Below, piece after piece: positions 30,709-56,870 of a stretch of DNA of 64,000 bases. Each line of letters opens with the position of its first letter. Position 1 is the first letter of the stretch. The position numbers and the translations under genes are program-made. The stretch covers positions 1 to 64,000 of the forward strand of contig JAZDCZ010000251.1 of assembly GCA_036679605.1 (NCBI GenBank), written 5' to 3'. Source of the DNA: Gemmatimonadota bacterium. GTDB lineage: Bacteria; Gemmatimonadota; Gemmatimonadetes; Gemmatimonadales; GWC2-71-9. The notes below the pieces were generated by a model, which saw nothing but the letters and a program-made list of their open reading frames with translations, did no database searches and was not told the DNA's origin.

Positions 30709-30738
30709 CGGCACTGACTCAATGGCCGGAGAACTCAG

Positions 30739-36152: not shown

Positions 36153-36153
36153 C

Positions 36154-38303: not shown

Positions 38304-38322
38304 AATGACCAGGAGCGGAACC

Positions 38323-38928
38323 ATGGTTTCCATGCCCTACGATGATCGTCGCGAACACTTGCTGAGCACAGCGGCCCAGGTCTTCGCCAAATGCGGATTC
38401 CACGCAACGACCATGCGCGATCTCGCGCGGGCCACGGGCATGAGCCTGGCCGGCATGTACCACTACGTGACCGGAAAGGATGAGCTGCTCTACCAGATCC
38501 AAGAGCGCTGCTTTACCAGAGTGACCAAGGGGGCTATCGGGGCGGTGGCGGAAGGCGTGGACGCAACCGACCGACTGGACCGCTTCATTCGACATCACGT
38601 CATTTTTTTTGCCGAACACATGAACGAGATGAAGGTCCTATCTCACGAGGCGGAGAGCTTGACCACCAAGCATCGGAAAAAGATCGATCGGCTGAAGCGC
38701 CGTTATGTAGACCTCCTCCTTAAATTGATTCAGGACACGGGTGCATGCCCGCCTCAGCTCGACGAAAGGGTTGCAACCTACGCGCTGTTCGGCATGATGA
38801 ATTGGATCTACACATGGTACGATCCTGCTGGACCTATCCCGCCGCGGGACTTGGCGGACCAACTGGCAACGCTGTTCGTTAACGGAATGCAGACAGCGAT
38901 ACCTTCTTCGCAATCGTTCGGAGGATGA
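38323..38928 (+). CDS. TetR-family repressor (PaaR/KstR2-like)
   Basis: AAQVF...GFHATTMRDLA...MYHY..GKDELL, ALFGMMNWIYTWY. AGGAG RBS 7 nt before ATG 38323. Confidence 0.92.
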   Translation: MVSMPYDDRREHLLSTAAQVFAKCGFHATTMRDLARATGMSLAGMYHYVTGKDELLYQIQERCFTRVTKGAIGAVAEGVDATDRLDRFIRHHVIFFAEHMNEMKVLSHEAESLTTKHRKKIDRLKRRYVDLLLKLIQDTGACPPQLDERVATYALFGMMNWIYTWYDPAGPIPPRDLADQLATLFVNGMQTAIPSSQSFGG

Positions 38929-38934
38929 TTCGAT

Positions 38935-39762
38935 ATGGCTACCACAGCTACACCCAAGACTGAGACCGCAGGCGATGCGGCAACGCTCGTCAAGTACCGC
39001 GTGCAAGACAGGATGGCAATCATGGAGTTGAGCGATCCACCAGCCAACACCTATACGCACGAGATGATGTGTCAGCTCGACACAGCGATCCTCAAGGCGC
39101 GGATGGATGACGATGTCGAGGTTATCGTGCTGCGCGGCGAGGGCGACAAGTTCTTCTCGGCCGGTGCCAACATCCAGATGCTGTGCGAAGTAACTCCGCG
39201 CTTCAAGTATTTCTTCTGCCTCCACGCCAACGAGACTCTGAACCGATTCGAGCACACACCCAAGCTCGTGATCGCGGCGCTCAACGGACACACGGTGGGA
39301 GGCGGCCTCGAGATCGCCATGGCGTGCGACATCAGACTGGCACGCAAGGATTCCGGCAAGATCGGTCTCCCCGAAGTCAACCTCGGCGTACTCCCGGGTA
39401 CCGGCGGCACACAACGGCTCGCCCGCCTCATCGGCAAGTCCCGCTCGATGGAGATGATGGTGACCGGTGAGGTCTTCTCGTTCGAGAAAGCCCAGGAGAT
39501 CGGCCTCGTCAACGAGATATTTCCCAAAGACACCTTCTGGGACGACGTATTGATGTACGCCAAACAGTTCTGCACTCCCAACAAAGCCGCGAAGGCGGTC
39601 GGTCATATCAAGCGCGCGGTCTGCTCCGGTCTTGAAGTCCCATTTGAGAGCGGACTCGCGATAGAGCGCGAGTTGCAGCAGGGGCTTTTCCAGAGTGAGG
39701 ACGCAAAGGAAGGTCTCGCCGCGTACATCGAGAAGCGTATGGCGGAGTTCAAGGGACAGTAA
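38935..39762 (+). CDS. Crotonase-family enzyme resembling the N-terminal domain of BoxC
   Basis: FSAGANIQML...KYFFCLHANETLNRFE, GGGLE, LPEVNLGVLPGTGG. Confidence 0.85.
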   Translation: MATTATPKTETAGDAATLVKYRVQDRMAIMELSDPPANTYTHEMMCQLDTAILKARMDDDVEVIVLRGEGDKFFSAGANIQMLCEVTPRFKYFFCLHANETLNRFEHTPKLVIAALNGHTVGGGLEIAMACDIRLARKDSGKIGLPEVNLGVLPGTGGTQRLARLIGKSRSMEMMVTGEVFSFEKAQEIGLVNEIFPKDTFWDDVLMYAKQFCTPNKAAKAVGHIKRAVCSGLEVPFESGLAIERELQQGLFQSEDAKEGLAAYIEKRMAEFKGQ

Positions 39763-41195
39763 TGAAGACCGATCTGTTCATCAGCAATGAATGGCGGCAA
39801 GCAGCATCCGGCAACACGATGGACGTTACGAATCCCGCCACCGAAGAGGTAATAGCCTCGGTGGCGGCTGCCGGTGAAGATGATGTGAACGCTGCCGTCC
39901 AGGCGGCACGCTCATGCTTCGATAGCAGCGAGTGGCGCACGTTGCCTGCGCGCAAGCGCGGCGCCATGCTTTACCGAGCGGGCGAACTTCTCACAGAACG
40001 CCGCAACGAGATAGCAAAACTCGAAACGCTCCACAACGGGAAGCCGTTGTTCGAGTCTAAGATCGACGTTGCGATGAGTGCCGAAACACTCAAGTACTAT
40101 GCAGGTTGGGCCGACAAGCTGAGCGGCGACGTGCTCTCGGTCAACACGGGAGACTTCGTCTACACGGACAGGGAGCCGCTTGGAGTTGTGGCCGCTATCG
40201 TGCCGTGGAATTTCCCGCTGAATCTAGCGAGCTGGAAATTCGCGCCCGCTTTGGCAGCAGGCTGCACGGTCATCCTCAAACCTGCAAGTGAAACGCCTCT
40301 CACCGCGTTGGCGATGGGCGAGATCATGCAGGAAGCAGGTTTTCCTCCCGGCGCCTTCAACGTGCTGTCGGGTTCCGGCAGCGTTGCCGGCAATGCGTTG
40401 GTCAAGCATCCCGATGTCGACAAGATCGCTTTCACGGGTTCAACCGAGGTCGGTAAGCGCATCATGCGCGATGCCGCCGATACCGTTAAGCGCGTGACGC
40501 TGGAACTGGGCGGCAAGAGTCCCAATATCATTTTTGCTGATGCGGATTTGAAGTCGGCAGTGCGCGGCGCCCAGAACGGAATTTTTTATGGCAAGGGCGA
40601 GGTCTGCGCGGCCGGATCGCGGCTGCTTGTTGAGCGTTCCGTGCACGATCAGGTAGTGGAACAACTCGCCGCACGAGCCAAACGACTCGTGCCCGGCGAT
40701 CCATTCGAGAAAGACACGAGACTCGGCGCGGTCGTTTCCAAGGCCCAACAAGAAACGGTTCTCTCCTACATCGAAGCGGGCAAGAGCGAGGCGACGCTCG
40801 TGGCAGGCGGTAGTGCGGCCCAGGTGAACGGCAAGGGATACTTCGTCGAGGCCACGGTGTTCGACGACGCAAAGCCCGGCATGAAGATCGTGGAAGAAGA
40901 GATCTTTGGCCCCGTGCTATCGGTCCTGTCGTTCGACGACGTGGACGAAGCCATTGAATTAGCGAACAAGACGATGTACGGGCTGGCCGCCGGTATCTGG
41001 ACAAAGGACATCCAGAAGGCGTTCCGGGTCGCACGTTCCGTTCGGGCGGGCACGGTCTGGGTCAACACGTACAACATGTACGACTCTGCGGCACCGTTCG
41101 GCGGATTCAAGGCGAGCGGGTTCGGACGCGACCTGGGTCGTGAAGCGCTCAACGGATATACCGAAACCAAGACTGTTTGGGTGGGGCTCCGGTGA
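39762..41195 (+). CDS. Aldehyde dehydrogenase
   Basis: PWNFP, KPASETP, FTGSTEVG, LELGGKSP, GEVCAAGSR, EEIFGPV. Confidence 0.96.
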   Translation: MKTDLFISNEWRQAASGNTMDVTNPATEEVIASVAAAGEDDVNAAVQAARSCFDSSEWRTLPARKRGAMLYRAGELLTERRNEIAKLETLHNGKPLFESKIDVAMSAETLKYYAGWADKLSGDVLSVNTGDFVYTDREPLGVVAAIVPWNFPLNLASWKFAPALAAGCTVILKPASETPLTALAMGEIMQEAGFPPGAFNVLSGSGSVAGNALVKHPDVDKIAFTGSTEVGKRIMRDAADTVKRVTLELGGKSPNIIFADADLKSAVRGAQNGIFYGKGEVCAAGSRLLVERSVHDQVVEQLAARAKRLVPGDPFEKDTRLGAVVSKAQQETVLSYIEAGKSEATLVAGGSAAQVNGKGYFVEATVFDDAKPGMKIVEEEIFGPVLSVLSFDDVDEAIELANKTMYGLAAGIWTKDIQKAFRVARSVRAGTVWVNTYNMYDSAAPFGGFKASGFGRDLGREALNGYTETKTVWVGLR

Positions 41196-42391
41196 GAGAC
41201 GCCTTCATCTGTTCCGCGGTGCGCACTCCCGTTGGCCGGCACGGTGGCGCGTTGGCGAGCGTCCGGCCCGACGACCTCGCCGCCACCGCGCTCAAGGCAG
41301 CGGTCGAGCGGGTGGATTTCGATCCGGCCAACATCGACGACGTGATCTTGGGGTGTGCCAATCAAGCAGGTGAGGACAACCGCAATGTCGCTCGGATGGC
41401 GTCGCTGTTAGCGGGCTTTCCCGTCGAGATTCCAGGACAGACCGTAAACCGACTATGCGGATCGGGACTACAAGCAGTTGCGAGCGCCGCGCACGCTATC
41501 AAGGCGGGAGAAGGCGATGCCTTTTTGGCCGGTGGTGTGGAAAGCATGACCCGCGCACCGTACGTCCAGTTGAAGCCTGCAACCGGCTGGGACAGGCGGC
41601 CGCTGCAAGTTGCGGATACCACTTTGGGTTGGCGCTTCGTCAATCCACGAATGCCCCGAGAGTGGACCATCGCGCTTGGGGCCACGGCGGAACTCGTGGC
41701 CAAAGAGCACGGGATCACGCGCGAAGAGCAGGACGCGTTTGCGCTCCAGAGCCAGCGCAAGACGGCAGCAGCAATGCAAGACGGCGTGTTCGGCGACGAG
41801 ATAGTTCCTGTCTCTGTCGCGCGACCGAAGGGTAAGGTCGAAAGGGTAAGCGTAGACGAACACCCACGGCCCGACGTAACTCTCGATCAACTGGCGAAAC
41901 TGAACCCCGCATTCGTGCAAACCAACGGCACCGTGACCGCGGGGTCCGCCAGCGGAATCAACGACGGGGCAGCGGCACTACTGGTAGTGGGTGGTACGCC
42001 ACATGGCCTGAACGGCCTAGAACCTTTGGCGCGAGTGGTTGGCAGCGCAGTCGCGGGAATCGATCCTGCCCGCATGGGTCTTGGACCGGTGCCGGCTACA
42101 CTCAAGTTGCTCGAGCGAACGGGCGTTAGTGTCCACGAGATCGACTTGGTCGAGATAAACGAGGCATTCGCTGCGCAGGCCATTGCATGCATCAGGGTAC
42201 TGAGCCTCGACCCCAGCCGAGTAAACATCTACGGCGGCGCCATCGCGCTGGGTCACCCCCTCGGGTGCAGTGGCGCCAAGATACTGACCACGCTAGTGCA
42301 CGCACTCAAGCGCACCGGCGGTCGCTATGGGCTGGCCACTATGTGTATCGGCGTGGGCCAAGGGATCTCCATGCTGGTCGAGCGATTGTGA
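41192..42391 (+). CDS. Thiolase, PaaJ/PcaF (3-oxoadipyl-CoA) type
   Basis: RPDDL, GCANQAGEDNRNVARM, NRLCGSG, NEAFA, GHPLG, CIGVGQG. GTGA overlap with ALDH. Confidence 0.93.
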   Translation: MRDAFICSAVRTPVGRHGGALASVRPDDLAATALKAAVERVDFDPANIDDVILGCANQAGEDNRNVARMASLLAGFPVEIPGQTVNRLCGSGLQAVASAAHAIKAGEGDAFLAGGVESMTRAPYVQLKPATGWDRRPLQVADTTLGWRFVNPRMPREWTIALGATAELVAKEHGITREEQDAFALQSQRKTAAAMQDGVFGDEIVPVSVARPKGKVERVSVDEHPRPDVTLDQLAKLNPAFVQTNGTVTAGSASGINDGAAALLVVGGTPHGLNGLEPLARVVGSAVAGIDPARMGLGPVPATLKLLERTGVSVHEIDLVEINEAFAAQAIACIRVLSLDPSRVNIYGGAIALGHPLGCSGAKILTTLVHALKRTGGRYGLATMCIGVGQGISMLVERL

Positions 42392-43179
42392 CCGAACCTC
42401 ACGTTCTCGTAACGACCGACGCCAGAGTTGCGACCATCACACTCAACCGGCCCGACAAGCTGAATGCGTTCGCCGGACAGATGCGTCAGGAACTAGCCGA
42501 CGCTGTGAGTCAAATGGCGAATGACGACACAGTCAGGGTCATAGTCATTACCGGCGCAGGCAGAGCCTTCTGTGCAGGTGCGGATATCGGATACATGAAA
42601 CAGTTGCTCGAGGACGACGACTATGAATCGGCGGAGGCCTTGGTTGAGGCTGGTCGCTCCGTAGTCACAACCATTCGGGCAACGGCCAAGCCCGTGGTCG
42701 CTTCACTCAACGGTGCTGCGGCCGGTGGAGGAGCCAACATGGCACTCGCCTGCGACATCCGCATTGCGTCGGACAGAGCAAGCATCGGTCAGACCTTTAA
42801 TAGAATCGGACTCCACCCCGACTGGGGCGGTACCTATTTCCTTCCTCGCCTAGTAGGACCATCAAAAGCCCTGGAACTGATTTTTTCGGCAGACATGTTG
42901 GATGCCCAAAGTGCTCTAGCCATTGGATTGTTCAACAGAGTTGTGCCGCATGGCGAGCTTGCACGTGAGACCGCTGCATTTGCACGAATGTTGGCGGAGA
43001 AGCCGCCGATCTCTTTGGCGCTTGCCAAGGAGGCCATCTACCGCAGCGATGAGAGCAATCTCAATCAAATGCTGGATGTAGAGTTGGACCATCAGCTCCG
43101 CTGTTTCAAGAGTCACGACGCCAAGGAAGGACTCCAGGCGTTCCTAGAAAAACGATCACCCCATTTTGAAGGCAGGTAG
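42388..43179 (+). CDS. PaaG-like enoyl-CoA isomerase/hydratase
   Basis: AFCAGAD, NGAAAGGGANMALACD, IGLHPDWGGTYFLPRLVG (Asp-type crotonase without the two Glu). GTGA overlap. Confidence 0.85.
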   Translation: MTEPHVLVTTDARVATITLNRPDKLNAFAGQMRQELADAVSQMANDDTVRVIVITGAGRAFCAGADIGYMKQLLEDDDYESAEALVEAGRSVVTTIRATAKPVVASLNGAAAGGGANMALACDIRIASDRASIGQTFNRIGLHPDWGGTYFLPRLVGPSKALELIFSADMLDAQSALAIGLFNRVVPHGELARETAAFARMLAEKPPISLALAKEAIYRSDESNLNQMLDVELDHQLRCFKSHDAKEGLQAFLEKRSPHFEGR

Positions 43180-43182
43180 AGA

Positions 43183-44298
43183 ATGATTCGTAAGGTCCAC
43201 AACTGGGATGACTGGATCGACTACTTCTACTTCTGGCAGGATTCGATTGGGCTCGATCGATCGGAGTTACGTGACTTCGAGTTCGACATCAAGTTCGGCG
43301 AGCCCGAGGCCGGCGCGATCGAATTCGGCCACTACAAGGGACAACTCAAGTGGCCAAGCATAATGCACATTCCCGACCAGCGAATTCGCGATGCGCTCAT
43401 GAACTTGATCATCTATCAAGGTGACACCGAGTTTGCTTCGGTAGAGCAGCAGCGCAATCTCCTGCTTTCTCCGCCCAGCGACTACGACATGCAGGCGATC
43501 ATGCGCGTAATGTGCGAGGAGATGCGGCATGGCTGGCAGATGTCGTATCTGCTGTGCGAACATTTTGGTGATGAAGGCAAACGAGAAGCACAGAAGATGC
43601 TGGAGCGCACTGCGGACGAGGGTCAGCGCCTACTGGGTAGCTTCAATGAGCTGGTCGACAACTGGCTCGACTTCTTTACCTACACCCAGTTCATCGATCG
43701 CGACGGCAAATTCCAGCTCAAGATGCTGTCGACCTCTGCGTTCGAGCCGCTAGCACGCTCTATGGGACCGATGCTCAAAGAGGAGAGTTTCCACCTCGGC
43801 ACCGGCAACAACGGTTTGCTCAGGATCATCAAGGCCGGGATCATTCCGCCGGAGATCATGCAGCACTTCTTCAACAAGTGGGTACCGACGGCATTCGATC
43901 TGTTTGGGACCGATCACTCGTCGTCGGCACACTGGGCCTACGTGTGGGGTCTGAAAGGCCGGTTCGACGAGCGCGAGAACCCCGTCGAGGCCGACAAGGA
44001 CGCTCTGAACGACATGTCGCGCCAGCTCTATCGGCAGGAATGCGTGCGCCTGGTCGACAGACTCAACAAATTCATTCCCGACCGCGACCGCTGGCTGATG
44101 ATCCCAGACATCAAGTTCAATCGGAGTATAGGCGAACACGCGCACATGCATTACGATGTCCACGGGAATGAACTGAGCGCCAATCGCTACGAGAAGTACA
44201 TAGCATCCGTGACGCCCTCCAAGGACGATTACGATCTAGTGCACAAGCTCACGAAGGAGCCCGACTGGATCGAAGCCCGCGAAATCTCAAAGAATTGA
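43183..44298 (+). CDS. Short BoxB-like di-iron aryl-CoA epoxidase subunit
   Basis: QGDTEFASVEQQR, EEMRH, WLDFF....F.DRDGKFQL, F.PLAR, EESFH. Confidence 0.88.
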   Translation: MIRKVHNWDDWIDYFYFWQDSIGLDRSELRDFEFDIKFGEPEAGAIEFGHYKGQLKWPSIMHIPDQRIRDALMNLIIYQGDTEFASVEQQRNLLLSPPSDYDMQAIMRVMCEEMRHGWQMSYLLCEHFGDEGKREAQKMLERTADEGQRLLGSFNELVDNWLDFFTYTQFIDRDGKFQLKMLSTSAFEPLARSMGPMLKEESFHLGTGNNGLLRIIKAGIIPPEIMQHFFNKWVPTAFDLFGTDHSSSAHWAYVWGLKGRFDERENPVEADKDALNDMSRQLYRQECVRLVDRLNKFIPDRDRWLMIPDIKFNRSIGEHAHMHYDVHGNELSANRYEKYIASVTPSKDDYDLVHKLTKEPDWIEAREISKN

Positions 44299-44978
44299 CG
44301 CGCGTCATCGCACACCGCGGCGCATCGGGCAAGGAGTTGGAGAACACGCTCGCTGCGTTCCGTACGGCGGTGGCACTCGGTGCGGACGGCGTTGAACTCG
44401 ACGTTCATGTAACATCTGACGCGGTTGTGGTCGTACATCACGACGACACGATCGCCGGCATGCCGATTCGCGATAAATCCCTGGACGAATTGCGCACGCA
44501 ACCTCTCGGCAACGGCGAACCGATCCCTACGTTGGATGACGTGCTGAGAGAGTTAAGTGATGCCGTAGAGGTCTTTGTCGAAGTAAAAGAGCTACCTGCC
44601 GAGCATGACGCCACGCTGTTGTCGGTACTGGATAGCGGGCCGGCGTATCAGCGCTACCGAGTTCACTCGTTCGACCATCGCATAGTGAAGAGGCTCCGCG
44701 AAGCAAGACCTTCCCTACCCTGCGGTGTGCTGTCGACCTCCTATTTGCTCGATCCGCTAGCGCAGGTCCAGGACGCCATGGCTACGAGCCTTTGGCAAGA
44801 GCAGTCGCTAATCGATCGCGATCTCGTGGATCTCACGCACAACGAAAACATCGAAGTTTACGCGTGGACGGTGAACGACATTGACCGCATGCGCGAATTG
44901 GTGGGGCTCGGTGTTGATGCTATTTGTACGAATCATCCTGACATCGCCCAAAAGGTTGTCACCGGCTCAGAAGTCTAA
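44295..44978 (+). CDS. Glycerophosphodiester phosphodiesterase
   Basis: IAHRGAS..ENTL.AF, ELDVH, HHD, EVK, SFD, WTVND, TNHPD. Confidence 0.93.
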   Translation: MTRVIAHRGASGKELENTLAAFRTAVALGADGVELDVHVTSDAVVVVHHDDTIAGMPIRDKSLDELRTQPLGNGEPIPTLDDVLRELSDAVEVFVEVKELPAEHDATLLSVLDSGPAYQRYRVHSFDHRIVKRLREARPSLPCGVLSTSYLLDPLAQVQDAMATSLWQEQSLIDRDLVDLTHNENIEVYAWTVNDIDRMRELVGLGVDAICTNHPDIAQKVVTGSEV

Positions 44979-45010
44979 TGGCCCGGGTTAATGGGCCGTT
45001 GTCGGCGGAC

Positions 45011-45109
45011 TGTTGTCAGCGGCTCAGAGCCGCTACTCGGCTGATGTCGCTGATAGCGACAGTCACGCACCATCTTTTCATTCGGGGACGTAGTAGTGGA
45101 GGGAGTAGG
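45011..45109. repeat. Hairpin-rich direct repeat, copy A
   Basis: 45011-45060 matches 51865-51914 at 49/50. 45062-45109 is a diverged match to 52029-52076. Confidence 0.9.
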
Positions 45110-45159
45110 ACACAGATGGACGCAGAATACGCTGATGACTAAGAGCGCTAGTGCGCGCG

Positions 45160-45720
45160 CCACTCACGGTCCGGGCTCCCGAGCAATCAGCGATTCTTCC
45201 GTTCCCCTACACTCGGTCAACACTTCCGTCCTTCCTCACCTTGACAAGTACCATCCGCACCGGATCTCACTCCCCTTCCAACGTGAACTGCACGGAGGTC
45301 GCGGATGTACGCTTCACACCAGCCGCAGATCCCAGAGTCACGAACTTGAGAAGTGCGCTCCCCAGTCCGGCAAAGCTGATCGACTTCTTCTTTTTCTCCG
45401 TTCCGAGAAAGACGAAATGCCTGGCCTCATAAACCTGCGAAGCAATGTAGAATTGTCCGTGTCGTCATCCGTCAACTTTCCTAACCGGCGGGCTACAGCG
45501 AACAAGTTGCTGATTCTCTTTCCAGTCACCCGAGGCGTACGGATGAAGAACGCGTTCTCTGTACGAAAACTGATCCTGAACTCGGCCTTGGCTTCAAGAT
45601 CCAACTGGTCGAATCCGATCTCGCCTTCCAGCCGTACGAAGGTTCGCGAGACGCCCTGCAGCTACAGAGAAATGTTCCCTTCCTTGTCCAGATTTCGTGT
45701 GTTGATACAATTGATGCCTG
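45160..45720 (-). pseudogene. Possible decayed gene remnant, family unknown
   Basis: Protein-like reading (..LQGVSRTFVRLEGEIGFDQLDL..; ..HFVFLGTEKKKKSISFAGLG..) broken by stops and a frame change. Confidence 0.3.
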
Positions 45721-45726
45721 ATAACC

Positions 45727-46908: not shown

Positions 46909-46919
46909 GGCCTACGACC

Positions 46920-47963: not shown

Positions 47964-48034
47964 CGTCTTCGGATTCGCTGAGCTAGACTTGGCAGAGGTG
48001 ACGCACTCTGCCTTGCTGTCACCACGCCTGACAG

Positions 48035-48454
48035 CTAGCCACCTGCCATCGTACGACTGCCGTCACTAGACTTACCTTTGTCTTCACCGCCCGTACCTTC
48101 TGATGTGGCACCTTTCGTTGAGGTCACTACCACCCTTGATTCGCCATTGCACGGCTTGGTCCACATAATGTCGGGTGCTACCTCTAACGCCCAAATTTTT
48201 TCCCCAGATGTCAGCTGTACCTGGTCGCCCCAGTCTCTCAGCATAACACCCACAACGCAAATACCGCCGTTCTCACGGCAGCCCTCGAACGGCACCAATT
48301 CACAGTCGTTGCTACCGGTATTGTCGCCAAACCAAGGTACTGCCGTACACAGGGGGCATGTCTCACAGGCCTGAGCGACAAGGGGACGCGGCACGAAGCT
48401 TAATCCACAGACGATGAATGCACCTGCAAGTAACATTATCTTAATTCTTTGCAT
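48035..48454 (-). CDS. Small secreted Cys-rich protein / peptide precursor
   Basis: Strong RBS AGGAGG. Signal peptide ending LVA, then a 6-Cys core QACETCPLC-x14-C-x7-C-x6-C. Confidence 0.8.
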   Translation of the reverse strand: MQRIKIMLLAGAFIVCGLSFVPRPLVAQACETCPLCTAVPWFGDNTGSNDCELVPFEGCRENGGICVVGVMLRDWGDQVQLTSGEKIWALEVAPDIMWTKPCNGESRVVVTSTKGATSEGTGGEDKGKSSDGSRTMAGG

Positions 48455-48592
48455 CGTAGATTCCTCCTGGTAGTTACATGTCATTTGTCACTCCCCCCAA
48501 GCCAGCTCAGCGAATCCATTCACTGCCAATTCCTCGGCTTTCCTCATCAGATTGCGGCGCCCTTCCGACCGTCGTGATCATGTTCCGTCGTT

Positions 48593-50068
48593 CTATCTCT
48601 CCGACAAGAGCGCTATTAGGGCAGCTGGGCTACCTGCGCGAGACAACAGATCACTGGCCAGCTCCAGGACCGTATCCTTGTGGTAGTTAAGACTCCTGGT
48701 TTCCCGAACGTCGATTACCCCATCCGCACTCTCGACCTGCCCAAGCACGATGTCAGGAAGGATCCCTGGTCCGGGATCCAGCGGTCGCCCCCCGTCGGAC
48801 CGGTATACTGTTCTTGGCTCCCGAAAGAGTCGAGGTGCATCGACGAAGGGAGGGCCCCCGTTTCGCGAGAGTTGCGCACCCGAGACGCGACCGACCGATC
48901 GACCAGTTGGCGTGTACCACCGTGAAGTAGTGATCCGCATTGCGGCACCATCAGGAAGGGGGTACAAGCCGTATGTCACACCCTTCCCGAACGTTCGTTG
49001 ACCGATCAACACCGCACGATCGTGATCCTGGAGAGCACCTACAATTGCCTCGGCAGCACTTGCAGTCCCTTGATCGATTAGTACTACGATCGGCATATCG
49101 GGCCACCGCTGTCGACGCTCCGAAATCTCGAGATGTGGGCGAACGGGCTGCCTAAAGCGCTGTTCCACTATGACCAGACCGCTGTCGAGGAAGAGTTCCG
49201 CTATTCTTCTTGCCTGACTGCTGATACCGCCCGGGTTGTCCCGAAGATCAAGAATGAGAGCACGCATACCTCGGTCGCGCAAAACGTCGATCCGCCGCAT
49301 AAGATCACGCGCGGCATTCTGACTGACAACGCGAAGCCGCACGTAGCCCATCGTAGAATCCAGCATCGTCCATTGTGTGATCGAACTGACCTCCACGTAT
49401 CCTCGCTTGAGGCTTATTGACACGGGTTCAGTCGTGGCTTTCTGAAGCGCTTTGATGCGGACAACGGTACCTGGGTTCCCTCGCAAGGCGCTAGCAGCCC
49501 GCGTGGCTGACCAATTCCAGGTTGATTGCCCGTCTATCTCAACGATACGATCACCACCCTGTAATCCCACTCGTGCGGCCGGGCCCCCAGGAGTAGGGGT
49601 AACGATCTGAATCAAGCCGTTGTGGGACTCAACCCCAGCACCGATTCCGGAGTACGAACCGCTCGCCAATGTCGTCAGCGCATGATACGAACTCTTCTCC
49701 ACATATGCGGTATAGGGATCATCGATTCGGGCGATCAATCCCTCAATGGCCAGCTGATATACGTCTGAACGACTGATCGAATCCACGTAGTGGTCTGCGA
49801 TGTATGTGATCATCCTGTCAAGAGTCCGGGCTTTGCTCGTCTCTAGTTGTACCGCACCTCCTAAGCCCCCCGCTCCACTTACCTCGCCGTTTGGAGCCCT
49901 TAAAGACACAACTAGACGGTCTCGATCCATTTCCGCACTGTAGTCAGTTGCGGTCTTCCCACGCGCGCAGGCGAACGACACCGACAGTGTCAGGACTGCC
50001 CACCGAACTCCTACGTCGACTCTCGGTCCGCCCCGGACAAGCGGGCCAAATAACGTGGTCCGCATCAT
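48593..50068 (-). CDS. S41 C-terminal processing peptidase (CtpA-like) with PDZ domain
   Basis: DDPYT, YSGIG, PDZ (GGPAARVGL.GDRI), DLRDNPGG, TASAAE, TFGKG. RBS GAGGAG, possible lipobox SFA-C. Confidence 0.92.
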   Translation of the reverse strand: MMRTTLFGPLVRGGPRVDVGVRWAVLTLSVSFACARGKTATDYSAEMDRDRLVVSLRAPNGEVSGAGGLGGAVQLETSKARTLDRMITYIADHYVDSISRSDVYQLAIEGLIARIDDPYTAYVEKSSYHALTTLASGSYSGIGAGVESHNGLIQIVTPTPGGPAARVGLQGGDRIVEIDGQSTWNWSATRAASALRGNPGTVVRIKALQKATTEPVSISLKRGYVEVSSITQWTMLDSTMGYVRLRVVSQNAARDLMRRIDVLRDRGMRALILDLRDNPGGISSQARRIAELFLDSGLVIVEQRFRQPVRPHLEISERRQRWPDMPIVVLIDQGTASAAEAIVGALQDHDRAVLIGQRTFGKGVTYGLYPLPDGAAMRITTSRWYTPTGRSVGRVSGAQLSRNGGPPFVDAPRLFREPRTVYRSDGGRPLDPGPGILPDIVLGQVESADGVIDVRETRSLNYHKDTVLELASDLLSRAGSPAALIALLSER

Positions 50069-50385
50069 GGGACTCCTCAACAACCGCCACCGTCCCTTTC
50101 CAGGCGGTACTTCTGCACGACCGGGAACTGGAATGTGCGGTTCGTGACAAAACAGAATCGATTGTCAAATGCGGCCCGAGCTTGTCCGAACAAAGCCGAG
50201 TGAACTCTCGTGCGCGTACGCTGCATCAGTAACTTGCCATTCGTAAGCGCAAGCAGCGCCATGACCAATGCTTTATGGGTCGCATGTCCCAAATTCCTTC
50301 TCGGAGTCAGGCATAGAATCTTCCGCGATGTCTTGAAACACCAGAAATTTCACAGACCATGACCCCTTTCTGTCTCTCCACTCCA

Positions 50386-50482
50386 CTCAACCGCCGGCCA
50401 CGCAAACGCCTCGGCTACCGTACCCCGGAGGAATGCTATGAACCGTAATCCTCATTGTTGCACTTCAAACTTGATATCAAGC
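50386..50482 (+). mobile_element. IS30-family 3'-end scar
   Basis: LNRRPRKRLGYRTPEECYEP* (IS30 transposase C-terminal motif) followed by the end-like sequence gttgcacttcaaacttga. Confidence 0.8.
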
Positions 50483-50489
50483 GTCCTAA

Positions 50490-50600
50490 TAGACCTGTGC
50501 CCCAAAAGTTGGACAGGTTTGACCCCCGGCTTTTCCGATTAGGGTGGGGTCAGCAGGCTGTGGACGTAGGTCCACGGAGCCTGATCGCCTGAGGCGATCA
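50490..50600. mobile_element. Possible IS3-family terminal repeat remnant with hairpins
   Basis: tagacctgtgccccaaaagttggacagg recalls IS3/IS150-group ends (from memory). Hairpins gtggac-gtag-gtccac and tgatcgcct-g-aggcgatca. Confidence 0.45.
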
Positions 50601-50960
50601 CCGATTCGTAACTGTCTCCCTGACGAATTCACATGCACTAGAGGTCGGCGTCACCACACTACGGGTCGGCCACCCCAGAAGCTCTAGGTCTAGGTCACTG
50701 CGGTCGCTACCAGCATTGTTGCCTAGCACCTCGACCTCAACTGTATCGCGACGCCGATCTCATCAAATTTCACACCCTCTCTCCCACCTGCCGTCCCGCT
50801 GGAGCGCGAGTGGGGTGCAACAGCGACATGATTCACCCGCCGCTCTACTTGGGCAACCCTGGAGTCGCCATAACCGGTCACGGATGCGACATTCCACCGC
50901 GCGGTGGTTGACGCGGCATCAGACGGCTCTCACATTCACACTCCTCTAGTTCCAAGGCAT

Positions 50961-51816
50961 ATGATGGACGTGATCGTCGGTTATAGTCTGTCTTCACCCG
51001 TTGCGGCCAATATCGTGCGTGCTGCCCTTACCACGATCGGTGCCGAGGCAGTTCGGATCCGCAATCCACGCCCGTGGAAGATCAGAACACTGTCTCGGCT
51101 ATCTGCCCTCGTTGACGACCTCGCACCGTGGACGGAGGGTGCGATTGCGCGTATAGCCGCCATCCATCGCGCGCGCCTGACCATGCCGATCGTGGTTTAT
51201 TACCCGGACACAACCGAGGCGGCGGGAGCCGTCGGCCGGCTGCAGATGATGTCGGCCGTAACGCTCAAGATGCAAGTGCTCGATCGCTACGAGACCAAGC
51301 GCCTCCGCTCTCTATTGACACCACTCCTGGCTAACCTCCCGGAAGCCCAGTTCCGTGGCATGCTCGGCTTTATCCTGCCCCAGGTGTCACCACATGTCGG
51401 GCGGTTCGTCGACGCGGCCTGCCGGCGACTCGCTCGAGGCGCGAGCGACCATCCACAGGTGGCAGACCTGGCAATCGCGGCGAACGTGTCGCTGCGACAC
51501 CTGGAACGCCAGTGTCAAATCTGCAACGTACCCAACCCCAACCGTCTACTCGACATGGGTGATGCTGCTATGGATCGAGTGGATGGCTCTTGCGGAACGA
51601 GTCGGCAGCGAGCTGTTCGCCGCACAGATAGGGATCGCGAAGAAAGATCTGGCACGCATTAGGGCCCGGCTCCTCGGCGCCCACAGTGTCGGCCTACAAG
51701 GCCAGCCGCCCCAGCACACTTTCGTAGTCGCGTTCCTGGGCTTCGCGAGCGTCCTCGGTGTTGAATCTGACATGGCGGACGAAGTGCTGCGACGCATCGC
51801 GGGGGGGGGGCATTAG
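50961..51816 (+). pseudogene. Frameshifted AraC-like HTH regulator
   Basis: HTH VADLA.AANVSLRHLERQC...P.PNRLL. Removing one base near 51555 joins LD to WVMLLW...AAQIG...LARIRARLLG. Confidence 0.75.
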
Positions 51817-51864
51817 GGAATCCGATCGTTAGAAGAGCGGCGTGATGGCCGGGCACGGCGCGGA

Positions 51865-52105
51865 TGTTGTCAGCGGCTCATAGCCGCTACTCGGCTGATG
51901 TCGCTGATAGCGACGTCACGCATCGAAACATGCAGCAGCGAACATGACGGGGCCAAAACGGATCAATGTCGCTCTTAGCGACACCCGCCGAGCCGCGACT
52001 CTCATGTCGCGAGTTCCCCTGCAAGGACGTCATGCACCATCTTTTCAGCCGGCGACGTGGCGGCAAAGAGAGTAGGTTGAAACGAACACGCATGTCGCGA
52101 GCACC
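51865..52105. repeat. Hairpin-rich direct repeat, copy B (longest)
   Basis: Contains both halves of copy A separated by about 110 bp, plus the segment shared with copy C. Confidence 0.9.
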
Positions 52106-52497
52106 TACCACGCCGCCACCAATACATCCGTTTGCCCAAAGTCATCACCTACGAAGAGGAGTGGTTCGCCCCGTGCGACCGCCAGGGCGTAGCTGAAACA
52201 ATCTCCGAAGTTGAGAGCGGCAGGATGGCGGCCGCGGCCGAACTTGACCGCCGCGTCACGTGCCAGTCGCGCGTCTTCCTCTGTAACGGATACTATCTCG
52301 GCCCCGATCTCTCTCAAGAAAAGGTCGAGCTGCGGATCGGCCGACTCACCATACCGCCCCAACAGTACGAGTGCAGTTTCCACCACGGTTGCCGCCGAGA
52401 CTTGCCGAGCCGGGGCAGCCTGGATCGCCGCGATCAACCGGTCGGCCACTGGCTCGCTCACGAGAACGGCAACCATGGCCGAGCTGTCGAGAACCAT
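52105..52497 (-). CDS. vapC: VapC toxin
   Basis: MVLDSSA, FGRGRHPAALNFGDCFSYALA, LLFVGDDF..TD. Confidence 0.95.
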   Translation of the reverse strand: MVLDSSAMVAVLVSEPVADRLIAAIQAAPARQVSAATVVETALVLLGRYGESADPQLDLFLREIGAEIVSVTEEDARLARDAAVKFGRGRHPAALNFGDCFSYALAVARGEPLLFVGDDFGQTDVLVAAW

Positions 52498-52500
52498 AGA

Positions 52501-52752
52501 TCAGCTGGGAAGCCCGTGTTCGTCGTAACCAATGATCTCATCTGCCGAACGGGGGTCCGCAACCGGCAACCGGGCAAGCCGATCCTGTATTCGTCCGACT
52601 CTCTCACTGAGGTCGTTCCGACGGCACATACGTTCGCGTTCGAGCCGCTGACGCAGTGACTCGCGGATCGCCTCGGTGAGCGATTCTCCTGTTGCCCTGG
52701 CCAGTTCCCTTGCCAGGCGGTCGGTTTCGTCGTCTTTGATACTCAAGGCCAT
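52501..52752 (-). CDS. vapB: VapB antitoxin (Rv0623-like)
   Basis: MALSIKDDETDRLARELA..TGESLTEAI...IIGYDEHGLP. Confidence 0.93.
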   Translation of the reverse strand: MALSIKDDETDRLARELARATGESLTEAIRESLRQRLERERMCRRNDLSERVGRIQDRLARLPVADPRSADEIIGYDEHGLPS

Positions 52753-52821
52753 GTCTAGCTTTCGATATTATTATCTATAAGTCTATACCACGGTGCGGTG
52801 GCCGTCAAGATATCGGCCCGG

Positions 52822-52878: not shown

Positions 52879-52924
52879 CCTGTCACTATCACCCCCACCC
52901 CGACGTTGCCAGGACAATCATAAA

Positions 52925-53788
52925 GTGAAACGAATCGCAGTTATTGGCGCAGGAACGATGGGCCACGGTATTGCACAGATCGCTGCAATGGCGGGCTGTG
53001 GGGTTAGGCTCACCGACTCCAATGCCGAAGTACTAGCCGCCGCACCAAGCCGAGTCGAGAAAAACCTGCAAGGCGGGGTATCACGCGGCAAGACGTCAGC
53101 AGACGACGCCGATGCGGCGATCGCACGAATCACTACCACTCCGTCCATCGAGGAGGCAGTCGGCGACGCCACGTTCGTGATCGAAGCGGTGTTGGAAGAC
53201 ATCGACGTCAAGAAAGATCTTTTCCGTCAACTCGATCAGCTAACGAGCCCGGATGCTGTTCTCGCGACGAATACATCCTCGCTCTCGGTGTCCCAGATCG
53301 CCTCGGCTACGAACAACCCCGGCCGCGTTGTGGGCATGCACTTTTTCAATCCGGTCCACATCATGAAGTTGGTCGAGATCATCGCCCATCCTGATGCCGA
53401 TTCCGATGCGGTTGCCGGCACTCGCGCACTGGCCGAGGAATTCGGCAAGCAACCGATCGTGGTGCGCGATACACCCGGCTTCGCATCCTCTCGTCTTGGC
53501 GTGGTCCTCGGACTCGAGGCCATGCGCATGGTCGAGCAAGAGGTCGCGTCACCCGAGGATATCGACAAGGCGATGGTGCTGGGCTACGGGCACCCCATGG
53601 GTCCACTCCGAGTTTCCGACCTGGTGGGCCTAGACATTCGGCTTGCCATAGCCGACTACTTACATTCACAGCTGGCCGATGCGCAGTACGAAGCACCTGA
53701 CCTATTGCGCCGCAAAGTAGAATCGGGTGAACTGGGCAAGAAGGTCGGCAAGGGATTCTACGACTGGCCCGACACGACCAAACCGTAA
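52925..53788 (+). CDS. 3-hydroxyacyl-CoA dehydrogenase (PaaH/Hbd-like)
   Basis: GAGTMGHGIA, EAVLE, TNTSSL, GMHFFNP, GHPMGPL..SDLVGLD, GKGFY. Confidence 0.95.
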   Translation: MKRIAVIGAGTMGHGIAQIAAMAGCGVRLTDSNAEVLAAAPSRVEKNLQGGVSRGKTSADDADAAIARITTTPSIEEAVGDATFVIEAVLEDIDVKKDLFRQLDQLTSPDAVLATNTSSLSVSQIASATNNPGRVVGMHFFNPVHIMKLVEIIAHPDADSDAVAGTRALAEEFGKQPIVVRDTPGFASSRLGVVLGLEAMRMVEQEVASPEDIDKAMVLGYGHPMGPLRVSDLVGLDIRLAIADYLHSQLADAQYEAPDLLRRKVESGELGKKVGKGFYDWPDTTKP

Positions 53789-53812
53789 CACTACGATAAG
53801 GATTGCACGACA

Positions 53813-54595
53813 ATGGATGAAAACAAAAACGTCCTGATAGAGATAGAAGGCCATGTTGCCAAACTCACGATCAACCGGCCGGAAAAGCTGAACGCTCTCA
53901 ACAACGAGACACGAAACGAACTGATGGATCTGCTTGACGATCTGGCGGTGAGCGACGATACGCGCGTTGCGATCATTACCGGGGCCGGAGAGAAGGCGTT
54001 CATCGCCGGCGCCGACATAAGTGAATTCGAGGGCCGCACGGCCGTCGATCAATATGAGGCCATGAGGGGACGCAACGTGTTCGAAGCAGTGGAGGCTTTT
54101 CCCAAACCACTCATAGCTGCGCTCAATGGTTTTTGCCTGGGAGGCGGATGCGAACTCGCGATGGCGTGCGACATCAGGATCGCTTCTGAAAAGGCAAAGC
54201 TGGGGCAACCCGAAATAAATCTGGGACTTCTTCCCGGCGGCGGCGGTACACAGCGGCTTCCGCGTCTGGTGGGGTTGGGTCGTGCGCTCAAGCTGATGTA
54301 TACGGGAGACATGATATCGGCAGCTGAGGCATATGAGATAGGATTGGTGGACGAGGTCGTCGCGCCAGAGAAGCTGAACGACCGGGTTGCCGAACTCGCG
54401 GCGGCGATCGCCAAGAAGAGTCCCGTGGCGCTCAGGTTAATCAAACGTTCGGCTCATGCCAGTACGCGCACATCGCTCGACGAAGGACTGCAGCAAGAGA
54501 AGGCACTGTTCGGAATCGCGTTCGCGTCCGAGGACAAGGCCGAGGGCGTAGCTGCGTTCCTCGAAAAGAGGCCTGCCAACTTCAAGGGCCGCTGA
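53813..54595 (+). CDS. Enoyl-CoA hydratase (PaaF/Crt-like)
   Basis: AFIAGADI, GGGCELAM, GQPEINLG..PGGGGTQRL. Confidence 0.94.
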   Translation: MDENKNVLIEIEGHVAKLTINRPEKLNALNNETRNELMDLLDDLAVSDDTRVAIITGAGEKAFIAGADISEFEGRTAVDQYEAMRGRNVFEAVEAFPKPLIAALNGFCLGGGCELAMACDIRIASEKAKLGQPEINLGLLPGGGGTQRLPRLVGLGRALKLMYTGDMISAAEAYEIGLVDEVVAPEKLNDRVAELAAAIAKKSPVALRLIKRSAHASTRTSLDEGLQQEKALFGIAFASEDKAEGVAAFLEKRPANFKGR

Positions 54596-54606
54596 GGAGG
54601 ACCCGG

Positions 54607-55461
54607 GTGCCCGGAGTCACCGACCTTCACGTTCACATTCAGCCATGGCGTCAACTCAAACCGCACATCGCCAAGGTCATGTGGCAGGGCCAGGAGGACC
54701 AGCGCGAACGCCTGATAGCGATCATGGAGGATCCCAAACTCCTGATCGAGCTGTTGGACCAGGCAGATATATGGCGAGTTGCACTGATCAACTATCCAAG
54801 CCCCGATCTGATGGGATTTACCGATGAGACGAACACATTTGCGGCGGAATACTCCAGGCACGCACCCGACCGACTGATTCCGTTCGGCGGCGTTCACCCG
54901 CGCTTCACAAACGATCCAGAGGGTCAGGTCGAAGAACTGATGCAGATGGGCATCCGCTGCCTCAAGATCCATCCACCACATCAGCTCTTCCCGGCCAACG
55001 CCTACACACAGGGCCTCGATGCACTGGGCCGGATCTACCGGCGCTGTGAGGAACGGGGTCTACCGGTCACTATCCATACGGGAACGAGCATTTTCCCGGG
55101 GGCGCGTTGCAAGTTCGGACGACCCATGGAAGTTGACGACGTGGCGATCGATTTTCCCGATCTCACGATCATCATGGCACACGGTGGCCGCCCGCTGTGG
55201 ATGGACGAGGCATTTTTTATCATGCGGCGTCATAAGAATGTCTATCTGGAATTATCGGGGATCCCGCCCAAAAAATTGCCGGAGTATTTTCCGCGCTTGA
55301 GGGACATTGCAGACCGGGTCGTCTGGGGCACGGATTGGCCCAGCCCCGGAGTCACGGACCTGCGCAAGAACCTAGATCAGTTCATGGCCCTTCCCTTTCC
55401 GGATGAGATGAAGCACAGCATCACAAGCACTAATCCGCTGTCGTTATTCCCGGAGGTCTAA
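54607..55461 (+). CDS. Amidohydrolase_2-family protein
   Basis: DLHVH, KIHP, IHTG, AHGG, WGTDWP. Confidence 0.9.
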   Translation: MPGVTDLHVHIQPWRQLKPHIAKVMWQGQEDQRERLIAIMEDPKLLIELLDQADIWRVALINYPSPDLMGFTDETNTFAAEYSRHAPDRLIPFGGVHPRFTNDPEGQVEELMQMGIRCLKIHPPHQLFPANAYTQGLDALGRIYRRCEERGLPVTIHTGTSIFPGARCKFGRPMEVDDVAIDFPDLTIIMAHGGRPLWMDEAFFIMRRHKNVYLELSGIPPKKLPEYFPRLRDIADRVVWGTDWPSPGVTDLRKNLDQFMALPFPDEMKHSITSTNPLSLFPEV

Positions 55462-56870
55462 TGCGCGGTGTGGCGCTGACGGCTGGACCGACACTCTTCA
55501 TTGTGACGATCGCGTTTCCGGCACCGGGAGCGCTGCCGGCGCCTGCATGGCACGTGGCTGGTCTCGCTGGTTGGATGGCCATCTGGTGGCTAACTGCAGT
55601 CGTACCACTTGAAGCCACATCCTTACTTCCCATCGTTATTCTACCGTTGGCCGGCATGCGCTCACTTCTCGACGTGACAGCATCCTATGCCGATCCGGTG
55701 ATCTTCCTATTCCTCGGTGGATTCCTGCTGGCGGCCACGCTCGAGCGCTGGGGCCTCCACAAGAGATTTGCGCTTGGGACCATCCGGCGAGTCGGGACCG
55801 ATGCGCCGCGAGTGGTGCTCGCGTTCATGATCGCGTCAGCCGTTCTCAGCATGTGGATCTCCAATACCGCGACTGCTGTCATGATGTTGCCCGTCGCAGT
55901 GGCATTGGTTGGTTCCAAGGTGGACTCAGGTGGATTCTCGACTGCCCTCATGCTTGGAATTGCGTATGCCTGTTCGATCGGTGGCGTGGCCACACTCATC
56001 GGCACCCCACCCAACGCTATTCTTGCCGGCGCCGTGAGTGAACTCACTGACCAAGAAATCGGATTCGCAGAGTGGCTCGTGGTGGGTTTGGCCATCTCGA
56101 TTCCCATGCTCTTCGCGTGTTGGTGGCTGTTGGTGAAGATGTTTGGGGTGCACGGCGAAGTCGCGGGCCTCAAGGAAACCTTAGAGAGCGAGCAGGCCAA
56201 CGTCGGGACCCTCTCCGGAGCCGAACGATTTGTCTTGAGTGTGTTCGGGTTGACCGCCCTGGCATGGATACTCCGAGCTCCCAAGTCCATTGGCGACATC
56301 CGCATCCCGGGGCTAACCGACCTGATCCCCGGCATATCAGACGCGGCGATCGCAATTGCCGCAGCGGTGATCCTCTTTGTGATTCCACTCAGCAAGTCAC
56401 GCTTCGACACGGCGCTCGATTGGGAGTCTGCGCGCAAGATCCCCTGGGGCGTGCTTCTGCTCTTTGGCGGCGGCCTGGCTCTGGCCGGTTCGTTCGGATC
56501 GAGCGGACTGAGCGACCAGTTGGGAAGCCTGTTAGTCGGCTTGAGAGGTGCTCCACTGATCCTAGTGCTGTTGGCCACCACAGCGAGCTTCGTTCTACTC
56601 ACTGAGTTGACTAGTAACACAGCGACCGCGGCTCTCGGAATGCCGCTCATGGTGGGCGTAGCCCAGGGACTCGGCGAGGCTGCACTACCCCTGATGGCCG
56701 CGGCTGCGCTGGGATGCTCCATGGCTTTCATGCTGCCGGTCGCCACCCCACCCAACGCCATATTGTTTGGCTCCGGGGTGGTACGATCACGTGATATGGC
56801 GCGCGCCGGTCTCCGACTAAATATCATTGCCATAGGTATAATTACCGTGGTCATATGGATTTGGACTTAG
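55461..56870 (+). CDS. SLC13/DASS sodium:carboxylate symporter
   Basis: SMWISNTAT, IGTPPN, LLFGGG, TSNTAT, PVATPPNA. Confidence 0.94.
   Translation: MRGVALTAGPTLFIVTIAFPAPGALPAPAWHVAGLAGWMAIWWLTAVVPLEATSLLPIVILPLAGMRSLLDVTASYADPVIFLFLGGFLLAATLERWGLHKRFALGTIRRVGTDAPRVVLAFMIASAVLSMWISNTATAVMMLPVAVALVGSKVDSGGFSTALMLGIAYACSIGGVATLIGTPPNAILAGAVSELTDQEIGFAEWLVVGLAISIPMLFACWWLLVKMFGVHGEVAGLKETLESEQANVGTLSGAERFVLSVFGLTALAWILRAPKSIGDIRIPGLTDLIPGISDAAIAIAAAVILFVIPLSKSRFDTALDWESARKIPWGVLLLFGGGLALAGSFGSSGLSDQLGSLLVGLRGAPLILVLLATTASFVLLTELTSNTATAALGMPLMVGVAQGLGEAALPLMAAAALGCSMAFMLPVATPPNAILFGSGVVRSRDMARAGLRLNIIAIGIITVVIWIWT

Follow-up and report, generated by a model that had tools for sequence, protein, structure and literature searches.

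The window analysed here is the whole 64,000-nt stretch C170:1-64000, the start of a contig in a 6.7-Mb Gemmatimonadota assembly that is 96.5% complete and 6.3% contaminated. It carries an operon on the plus strand which, as judged from gene content and homology, likely encodes a minimal aerobic benzoyl-coenzyme A (benzoyl-CoA; Box) pathway with a compact BoxB, a single-domain crotonase of the BoxC type and no BoxA. A palindromic operator of the CNAACGNNCGTTNG type (38290..38303) lies immediately 5′ of the start codon of the gene for a TetR-family repressor, a predicted aryl-CoA sensor (38305..38928, PF00440 and PF17932). The next genes encode ECH1, a single-domain crotonase of BoxC lineage and predicted 2,3-epoxybenzoyl-CoA dihydrolase, or ring opener (38935..39762); an aldehyde dehydrogenase (ALDH), predicted to act on the ring-cleavage semialdehyde (39762..41195, PF00171); a 3-oxoadipyl-CoA thiolase-like protein (41177..42391, NF006551 and TIGR02430); ECH2, a crotonase-fold protein of the isomerase type (42388..43179; the listed open reading frame (ORF) is 42187-43179, and GTG at 42388 is the likely start); a 371-amino-acid BoxB-type di-iron protein, the predicted aryl-CoA epoxidase (43183..44298); and a GDPD-family phosphodiesterase-like protein (44295..44978, PF03009). 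After an insert outside the pathway (45005..52790) the operon resumes on the same strand with a predicted 3-hydroxyadipyl-CoA dehydrogenase of the 3-hydroxyacyl-CoA dehydrogenase family (52922..53788, PF02737 and PF00725; the listed ORF begins at 52793), ECH3, a predicted 2,3-dehydroadipyl-CoA hydratase (53813..54595), an Amidohydro_2-family protein (54607..55461, PF04909) and an accessory DASS-family anion symporter (55461..56870, TIGR00785 above cut-off). ORF and profile checks bore out the gene families, order, strand and positions given in an earlier note on this DNA; the start of the cluster had been placed too far downstream and is moved back to 38305, with the operator before it.

Neighbouring genes within each half of the operon overlap slightly or lie at most 24 bp apart, and 7814 bp separate the end of the GDPD gene from the dehydrogenase ORF. 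Neighbourhoods of the di-iron protein were mapped by tblastn in 59 GTDB loci, all but one from Gemmatimonadota, at an identity of at least 45% and within the bounds set by contig ends. The gene order, whose conservation the earlier note had proposed to check, was kept: tetR (in 38 loci), ECH1 (42), ALDH (50), thiolase (56), ECH2 (56), the BoxB-like gene (59), GDPD (55), dehydrogenase (52), in some ECH3 (18), amidohydrolase (44) and in some DASS (11). GDPD and dehydrogenase genes were directly adjacent in 52 of the 52 loci that extend to the dehydrogenase, indicating that the 7.8-kb insert interrupts one operon. Two separate operons, or an assembly join, were ruled out by this synteny. In the same-genus genome G058 the halves lie on different contigs.

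The BoxB-type motifs described for the di-iron protein are real. Its residues E83, E113, H116, D172, E201 and H204 align with the BoxB ligands E120, E150, H153, D211, E240 and H243, and all six are invariant in the 36 short forms compared. In BoxB numbering, Q116 and F193 occur in 36 of these and T119 and S123 in 35, and F203 is kept in the compact protein. The available text of PMC5489048 gives the BoxB iron ligands and describes Q116, T119 and S123 as orienting the benzoyl group; E. coli PaaA has His, Ser and Gly at these three positions. The AlphaFold model (pLDDT 93) gave Foldseek TM-scores of 0.88-0.90 to BoxB entries (3PM5, 0.90) and 0.53-0.54 to PaaA, and sequence identity was 37% to a Mycetohabitans BoxB and 23% to PaaA. 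The protein scored 226 bits against the BoxB model TIGR03225 (cut-off 499) and 42 bits against the PaaA model. In databases the family is named PaaI/Paa or BoxB, and short forms were found among proteins named Poseidoniales/Thalassarchaeaceae, Binatia, Dehalococcoidia and Thermoanaerobaculia.

About 100 amino acids present in canonical BoxB are absent, from parts of the N-terminus, two internal loops (∼19 and ∼23 amino acids) and the C-terminal tail, in agreement with the shortness noticed earlier. Among the best 120 of 6940 homologues almost every one is 359-385 amino acids long, so the 371 amino acids are a family trait and not a truncation; a truncated or broken BoxB was ruled out by homologue lengths, the confident model and the invariant ligands. 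In a quick IQ-TREE run with long branches the BoxB family formed one clade (support 99), the long forms a nested clade (100), and the short forms fell outside the long clade (87), so the di-iron protein is not nested within canonical BoxB. (Rows L099 and L100 'tIIC' of this tree are copies of a PaaA-like subunit.) The compact form thus resembles BoxB of Aromatoleum (Azoarcus) evansii (3PER, 3PM5, 3Q1G) in fold, ligands, the five pocket residues named above and a single catalytic chain, and differs from it in its length, in F206 to Tyr and T210 to Ile, in scoring below the cut-off and in having no BoxA. The earlier note had described a single-subunit epoxidase. This is not a novelty, because canonical BoxB is already monomeric according to the available text of PMC4498308.

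ECH1 is the best BoxC match of the genome, with 88.9 bits against a cut-off of 712, covering model positions 18-231 of 548, and is 37% identical to the BoxC N-domain over 173 amino acids. In the alignment the FSAGANI and FCxxxNET signature of BoxC N-domains recurs in ECH1, as do both of their catalytic Glu residues; in this form the signature with both Glu is absent from ECH2 and ECH3. A quick tree with long branches grouped the ECH1 family with BoxC domains and split them from PaaF, PaaG, Dch and Oah with an SH-aLRT of 97. Among solved structures the nearest is 2PPY (242 bits), an uncharacterised Geobacillus protein. Unlike BoxC of ∼550 amino acids, ECH1 has 275 and is without the second, non-catalytic domain; catalysis by BoxC is confined to the N-domain, as stated in the part of PMC4498308 available. 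ECH1 is best described as a one-domain BoxC relative and predicted ring opener.

The remaining enzymes would form the lower pathway. The ALDH is generic and betaine-aldehyde-dehydrogenase-like; it scored 146.5 bits against the PaaZ model TIGR02278 (cut-off 563), the one BoxD/PaaZ-type model used to place it outside that family, and is predicted to be a functional stand-in for BoxD. The thiolase reached 551 bits against NF006551 (cut-off 605) and 541 bits against TIGR02430 (cut-off 597) and is 56% identical to E. coli PaaJ. ECH2 lacks both hydratase Glu residues, scored 238 bits against the PaaG model TIGR02280 (cut-off 345) and fell outside the PaaG clade of support 98 in the quick tree; ECH3 has both catalytic Glu and grouped weakly with E. 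coli PaaF (81). The earlier note had called the cluster a Box/Paa hybrid. As genes for a hydratase, a 3-hydroxyacyl-CoA dehydrogenase and a thiolase occur in canonical box operons too (available text of PMC6449761), the Paa-like genes do not make it a hybrid.

In the pathway that we propose, the substrate is probably benzoyl-CoA, which a ligase would make from benzoate and an unlinked HcrCAB-like enzyme from 4-hydroxybenzoyl-CoA. The compact BoxB would epoxidise benzoyl-CoA, ECH1 would open the ring of 2,3-epoxybenzoyl-CoA and the ALDH would oxidise the resulting semialdehyde. ECH2 would then isomerise cis-3,4- to trans-2,3-dehydroadipyl-CoA and ECH3 hydrate 2,3-dehydroadipyl-CoA, after which the 3-hydroxyadipyl-CoA dehydrogenase and the 3-oxoadipyl-CoA thiolase-like protein would complete the lower pathway.

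BoxA, PaaB/C/E and PaaZ, which the earlier note had not seen in the window, were not found in the genome either. Profile searches of the genome yielded only ferredoxin-domain matches for BoxA and no PF00175 FNR domain; this domain of BoxA and PaaE was also not found in 29 of 34 short-BoxB genomes, and no BoxA match was obtained in 67 metagenome loci. Neither a two-domain BoxC nor PaaZ was found in the genome, PaaB, PaaC, PaaE, PaaI and PaaX had no match in it, PaaK was represented by PaaK-like proteins at 29% only, and the single PF05138 gene is the BoxB-like gene itself. A boxA with full boxC, or a complete paaABCE/paaZ set, was therefore not found elsewhere in the 96.5%-complete assembly, and these absences support the idea of an uncharacterised aryl-CoA epoxide route.

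No electron-donor gene was found in the operon. Canonical BoxA contacts BoxB only transiently, according to the available text of PMC4498308. A general low-potential ferredoxin would be the most likely source of electrons, in preference to a dedicated reductase. This applies to the source genome too, which also has IorAB-like genes and two 7Fe-type ferredoxins (C154:10865-11140 and C165:27206-27619). NuoF-like and formate dehydrogenase genes at C357:109279-113725 (L195) could oxidise formate from ring opening. The lack of a reductase and a ligase in the operon, and the varied chemistry of di-iron carboxylate proteins (in the portion of PMC5489048 available), would also fit a hydroxylase or desaturase acting on another acyl-CoA in a specialised beta-oxidation module. 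We regard this as very improbable: the protein belongs to the BoxB clade (99), its partner is of the BoxC type, its neighbours include aromatic CoA ligases and Hcr, and it is interchanged with a PaaA-like complex.

This interchange was seen in a survey of 151 Gemmatimonadota genomes, of which 34 carried a short BoxB, 35 a 'type II' protein, 30 a canonical PaaA above cut-off and 52 none of these. Type II denotes a divergent PaaA-like protein scoring 1e-32 to 1e-39 (7 of the 35 were assigned by tree, the rest by score band). No genome fell into two groups. ECH1 orthologues were detected in 70 genomes, namely in 34/34 with short BoxB, 35/35 with type II and G110, and in 0/30 with canonical PaaA. 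In G037, G057, G068 and G061, which belong to the same family, the same operon contained type II genes in place of the short BoxB: PaaA/C/D-like and small genes followed tetR, and nothing lay between ECH2 and GDPD (G061 was without the thiolase). The operon shared by type II and short-BoxB genomes indicates that two unrelated oxygenases fill one slot. At three type II loci of other families the same operon was not found nearby. The TetR, operator type, ECH1 and tail, including the GDPD-like gene, are common to both kinds of operon; the type II complexes differ in being multi-subunit, in lying far from BoxB in the tree and in their place after tetR instead of between ECH2 and GDPD. Type II nevertheless keeps T119 and S123 like BoxB.

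Type II proteins occurred in Gemmatimonadota, Thermus plasmids and haloarchaea and are annotated as Paa. On Thermus plasmids, relatives of ∼60% identity lie beside a benzoate-CoA-ligase-family gene and an ECH1-type gene, and the label paaA_2 in 4 of 6 records implies a separate first paaA in Thermus. On haloarchaeal plasmids the neighbours are UbiD pairs, a CoA-transferase, a 2Fe-2S ferredoxin and an ECH1-type gene. The BoxB-like T119 and S123 and the benzoyl-CoA-type neighbours suggest that type II complexes may be mis-annotated benzoyl-CoA epoxidases. PaaA/D/B/C-like complexes of type II without PaaE were observed at L082:7900-10404 (−), L083:9539-12150, L098:13992-16395 and L099:11995-14288.

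Genes for possible feeder enzymes followed the same division. HcrA-like genes were present in 30/34 short-BoxB, 30/35 type II, 5/30 PaaA and 3/52 other genomes; the benzoate-CoA-ligase family in 24/34, 19/35, 5/30 and 4/52; and PaaK-like genes in 2/34, 0/35, 7/30 and 6/52, respectively. The Hcr co-occurrence as a by-product of anaerobic benzoyl-CoA reductase (Bcr) was considered and accounts for it only partly, the Hcr clade being present without close Bcr too: close Bcr orthologues were found in 15/34 short-BoxB and 12/35 type II genomes, versus 30 and 30 with HcrA-like genes.

In the source genome, the earlier note's remark that a CoA ligase is lacking holds for the operon; elsewhere, contig C212 carries two TIGR02262 benzoate-CoA-ligase-family proteins above cut-off, which are predicted ligases. 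Both lie at C212:84924-98820 (L070) together with genes for tryptophan 2,3-dioxygenase, a kynureninase-like protein and an AbmA-like flavoprotein. From its homologies this cluster would be a route from tryptophan to anthraniloyl-CoA, and one of the two ligases probably serves the anthranilate cluster there. Genes like hcrC/A/B, whose best model is 4-hydroxybenzoyl-CoA reductase (score below the curated cut-off), follow a YggX-like gene at C357:200182-204151 (L188:9182-13151), and the beta subunit keeps the four-Cys insert. A TetR-headed benzoyl-CoA-reductase-like operon (oah, dch, four reductase subunits, had) lies at C214:11190-19118 (L194:3190-11118). All its products scored below curated cut-offs, close orthologues were found in 29 of the 151 genomes, and it is possibly a separate reductase class.

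HPPD was found in 60 of the 151 genomes: in 0/34 with short BoxB, 0/35 with type II, 29/30 with canonical PaaA and 31/52 others; none was found in the source genome. The pattern holds within two families, and in one of them (f2) 26 of 31 genomes have HPPD and its three short-BoxB genomes, from three genera, do not. That HPPD never accompanies short BoxB or type II suggests a tyrosine/phenylalanine route. The simplest reading of the gene distribution is that, for tyrosine, the system of ECH1, epoxidase and Hcr would stand in for the homogentisate route and, for phenylalanine, it would stand in for Paa. Phenylalanine ammonia-lyase was considered as the chain-shortening step and rejected, the aromatic ammonia-lyase of the genome being HutH in a hut cluster.

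The operator 38290-38303 matches CNAACGNNCGTTNG exactly, and the same site precedes short-BoxB and type II operons at many loci (matches in 66 of 206 loci; 62 sites tallied). The available text of PMC6651687 gives CNAACGNNCGTTNG as the consensus of T. thermophilus PaaR, which senses phenylacetyl-CoA, in keeping with the PaaR-like regulator proposed earlier. The exact operator also heads an anaerobic bcr-hcr-tetR cluster in G016, and with one mismatch it heads a canonical boxC-boxB-ligase cluster in G146; the TetR is 38% identical to the TetR of the former and 36% to that of the latter. At the four canonical paa loci of the phylum that were examined, no site was convincing. Because the PaaR-type operator also stands before box and bcr clusters, it was not accepted as proof of phenylacetyl-CoA. 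The source genome contains 12 exact sites, of which only the one before tetR fits the longer palindrome of the family. Because no site was located near the hcr, bcr, ligase, IOR or formate dehydrogenase genes, the scan of this genome named no donor or feeder.

Several observations weigh against benzoyl-CoA as substrate or against its link to amino acids. The short BoxB never stood alongside canonical PaaA (0/30), as expected if both share a job, and the operator equals the site of a phenylacetyl-CoA-sensing regulator. Ten of the 34 short-BoxB genomes were without a ligase above cut-off, and the Hcr-like and Bcr-like proteins of Gemmatimonadota score below curated cut-offs. The pocket residues F206 and T210 of BoxB are mostly Tyr and mostly Ile in the short forms. 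The trees are quick runs with long branches, and the co-occurrence counts rest on few independent events because the genomes are related. The searches yielded no route by which the Phe/Tyr side chain would be shortened to give (4-hydroxy)benzoyl-CoA; Pad-type clusters were not evident, and IOR occurred patchily, in 23 of 151 genomes and with no pattern. The missing chain-shortening step is the main weakness of the amino-acid link and the main support for phenylacetyl-CoA as the substrate.

Under that alternative, which the earlier note had put forward as possible, a compact BoxB of changed specificity would epoxidise phenylacetyl-CoA in place of PaaABCE. ECH2 would take the part of PaaG, ECH1 and the ALDH together that of a split PaaZ, and the remaining enzymes those of PaaF/H/J. 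Since phenylacetyl-CoA would come straight from phenylpyruvate, neither ligase nor chain shortening would be needed. The strict exclusivity with canonical PaaA and HPPD fits this scheme, as do the in-operon exchange with a PaaA/B/C/D-like complex, the PaaR-type operator, the PaaJ-like thiolase, the PaaG model as top characterised-function score of ECH2, the IorAB-like genes of the genome and the short BoxB in Poseidoniales archaea. It is at odds with the BoxC lineage of ECH1, with the retention of S123, which is Gly in PaaA, and with benzoate-CoA ligases and HcrA adjoining family members; an Hcr-type enzyme requires an aroyl thioester. Likewise, the Thermus type II genes look like a second system beside Paa, and the operator is common to box and bcr clusters and not convincing at the four canonical paa loci. 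BoxB itself does not turn over phenylacetyl-CoA, according to the available text of PMC4498308. Taken together, we consider phenylacetyl-CoA unlikely, and the ECH1 lineage, the ligase and HcrA neighbours and the operator at box and bcr clusters argue for benzoyl-CoA.

A heterocyclic aroyl-CoA or a substituted one (4-hydroxy-, methyl- or amino-benzoyl-CoA) appears less probable still as the substrate; in that case the amidohydrolase and the GDPD-like protein would deal with the extra group or with dead-end products. This reading would explain the pocket changes, F206 to Tyr and T210 to Ile, Val or Gln, it would give a role to the conserved GDPD-like and amidohydrolase genes, which are otherwise without one, and it agrees with the divergence of the genome's own Bcr-like and Hcr-like enzymes from curated benzoyl-CoA enzymes. 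The amidohydrolase had close orthologues in 45 of the 151 genomes (34/34 with short BoxB, 10 with type II, and G110), and a homologue (34%) follows boxC in a Nonomuraea box cluster. On the other hand, 60 of the 69 genomes also have an Hcr-like reductase, whose reaction takes away the 4-hydroxy group, which speaks for benzoyl-CoA without a substituent. For 2-aminobenzoyl-CoA the genome has a separate AbmA-like enzyme, and GDPD was not found in the distant loci described below.

Sixty distant metagenome loci (52-61% identity), taken from the best 80 of 601 matches and many on short contigs, were compared. Of these, 42 had ECH1, 10 had an hcrA-like gene and 2 had a benzoate-CoA ligase above cut-off; the single hcrA scanned scored above the HcrA equivalog cut-off. 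Clustering of these loci gave no recurring PaaK-like family, PaaK itself not having been probed directly. At 7 of these loci the next gene after the short BoxB encoded a thioredoxin-like 2Fe-2S ferredoxin, and 4 also had a NuoF-like protein. In the Binatia-type loci L121, L124, L128-L130, L132 and L133 the operator stands directly before the short BoxB, followed by the ferredoxin and the NuoF-like protein; by its position this pair would be a candidate dedicated substitute for BoxA.

Other genes recur at short-BoxB loci. At 15 distant loci (L125-L127, L131, L134-L137, L139-L142, L150, L152 and L120) a gene for a mismatch-specific uracil/thymine DNA glycosylase separates ECH1 (or ALDH) from ECH2, and 21 loci have a rhodanese-like gene. 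The Poseidoniales (Marine Group II), which are protein-degrading archaea, carry the short BoxB at L153, L156, L159, L163, L170, L172, L181 and L182, mostly as ECH1, the BoxB-like gene, a 187-amino-acid ORF without Pfam or NCBIfam match and a 3-hydroxyacyl-CoA dehydrogenase.

The insert in the operon of the source genome contains beta-propeller proteins, a Cys-rich ORF, an S41 peptidase, a PIN-domain gene and an ORF without family assignment. A 65-bp direct repeat (45005-45069 and 51860-51922, 95% identical) lies near both ends, with partial copies on contigs C154, C217, C357 and C64, and an element of ∼97 bp near 50385 is met again at the ends of several contigs. The segment 45727-50083 (−), with two beta-propeller-like ORFs, the secreted Cys-rich ORF (48035-48484) and the S41 peptidase, resembles a peptide-processing cluster. 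Three PIN-domain genes, which together with the small ORFs next to them likely form toxin-antitoxin pairs, are located at 52105-52497 (−), 35859-36567 (−) and 62901-63323 (+), the first of which was covered by the profile scan. Upstream, at 28360-32550 (+), the translation shows a peptidase-M56-like protein with HEAT repeats, then a long HEAT-repeat protein.

The operon would work like a Box pathway, yet it falls outside canonical Box (no BoxA, no two-domain BoxC, BoxB score below cut-off) and outside Paa. With BoxABCD and BoxR it shares an epoxidase, a crotonase-fold ring opener, an aldehyde dehydrogenase, a beta-oxidation tail and links to benzoate-CoA ligase; it differs in its lack of BoxA, its one-domain ring opener, an ALDH outside the BoxD/PaaZ family, a TetR with a PaaR-type operator instead of BoxR, and the added GDPD-like and amidohydrolase genes. 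The Paa pathway of E. coli and Thermus thermophilus (PaaABCDE/G/Z/J/F/H with PaaR) is similar in chemistry class, lower pathway and operator, whereas the genome here is without PaaB, PaaC, PaaE, PaaZ, PaaI and PaaX and its di-iron protein is remote from PaaA in sequence and fold (TM-score 0.53). The combination of a compact BoxB with a one-domain BoxC relative and no BoxA would be a new variant of the Box pathway. A search by title and start of abstract, with most papers of JBC, J Bacteriol and Mol Microbiol outside it and supplements not covered, found no paper on a short BoxB, a one-domain BoxC or the oxygenase swap. Gemmatimonadota are not mentioned in the available portions of PMC13186573 and PMC10803450.

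A joint reading of all these data is offered tentatively, as a possibility that we hold to be doubtful as a whole. About half of the sampled Gemmatimonadota would degrade tyrosine and phenylalanine without HPPD, via 4-hydroxybenzoyl-CoA and benzoyl-CoA with an 'anaerobic-type' Hcr, and then open the ring with O2. The epoxidase slot would be filled either by a ferredoxin-fed, reductase-free compact BoxB or by a convergent PaaABCD-like benzoyl-CoA epoxidase mis-annotated as Paa, both working with a single-domain BoxC ancestor. This might be the gene set behind the pathway of Bacillus stearothermophilus, for which, as for Azoarcus evansii, an aerobic benzoyl-CoA pathway has reportedly been described.

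Box and Paa are the two model systems in which cleavage of aromatic rings through CoA epoxides is known. The present data would extend this family to Gemmatimonadota, Binatia, Dehalococcoidia, Thermoanaerobaculia and Poseidoniales archaea. A compact, reductase-free BoxB with a one-domain BoxC would be a minimal two-protein system for probing what BoxA, the second domain of BoxC and the additional loops contribute. The swap predicts that divergent PaaA-like complexes and compact BoxB share a substrate; if this is true, both annotations would be corrected together. The mutual exclusion with HPPD also indicates that the catabolism of aromatic amino acids has a gap in bacteria that are abundant in soil and sediment.

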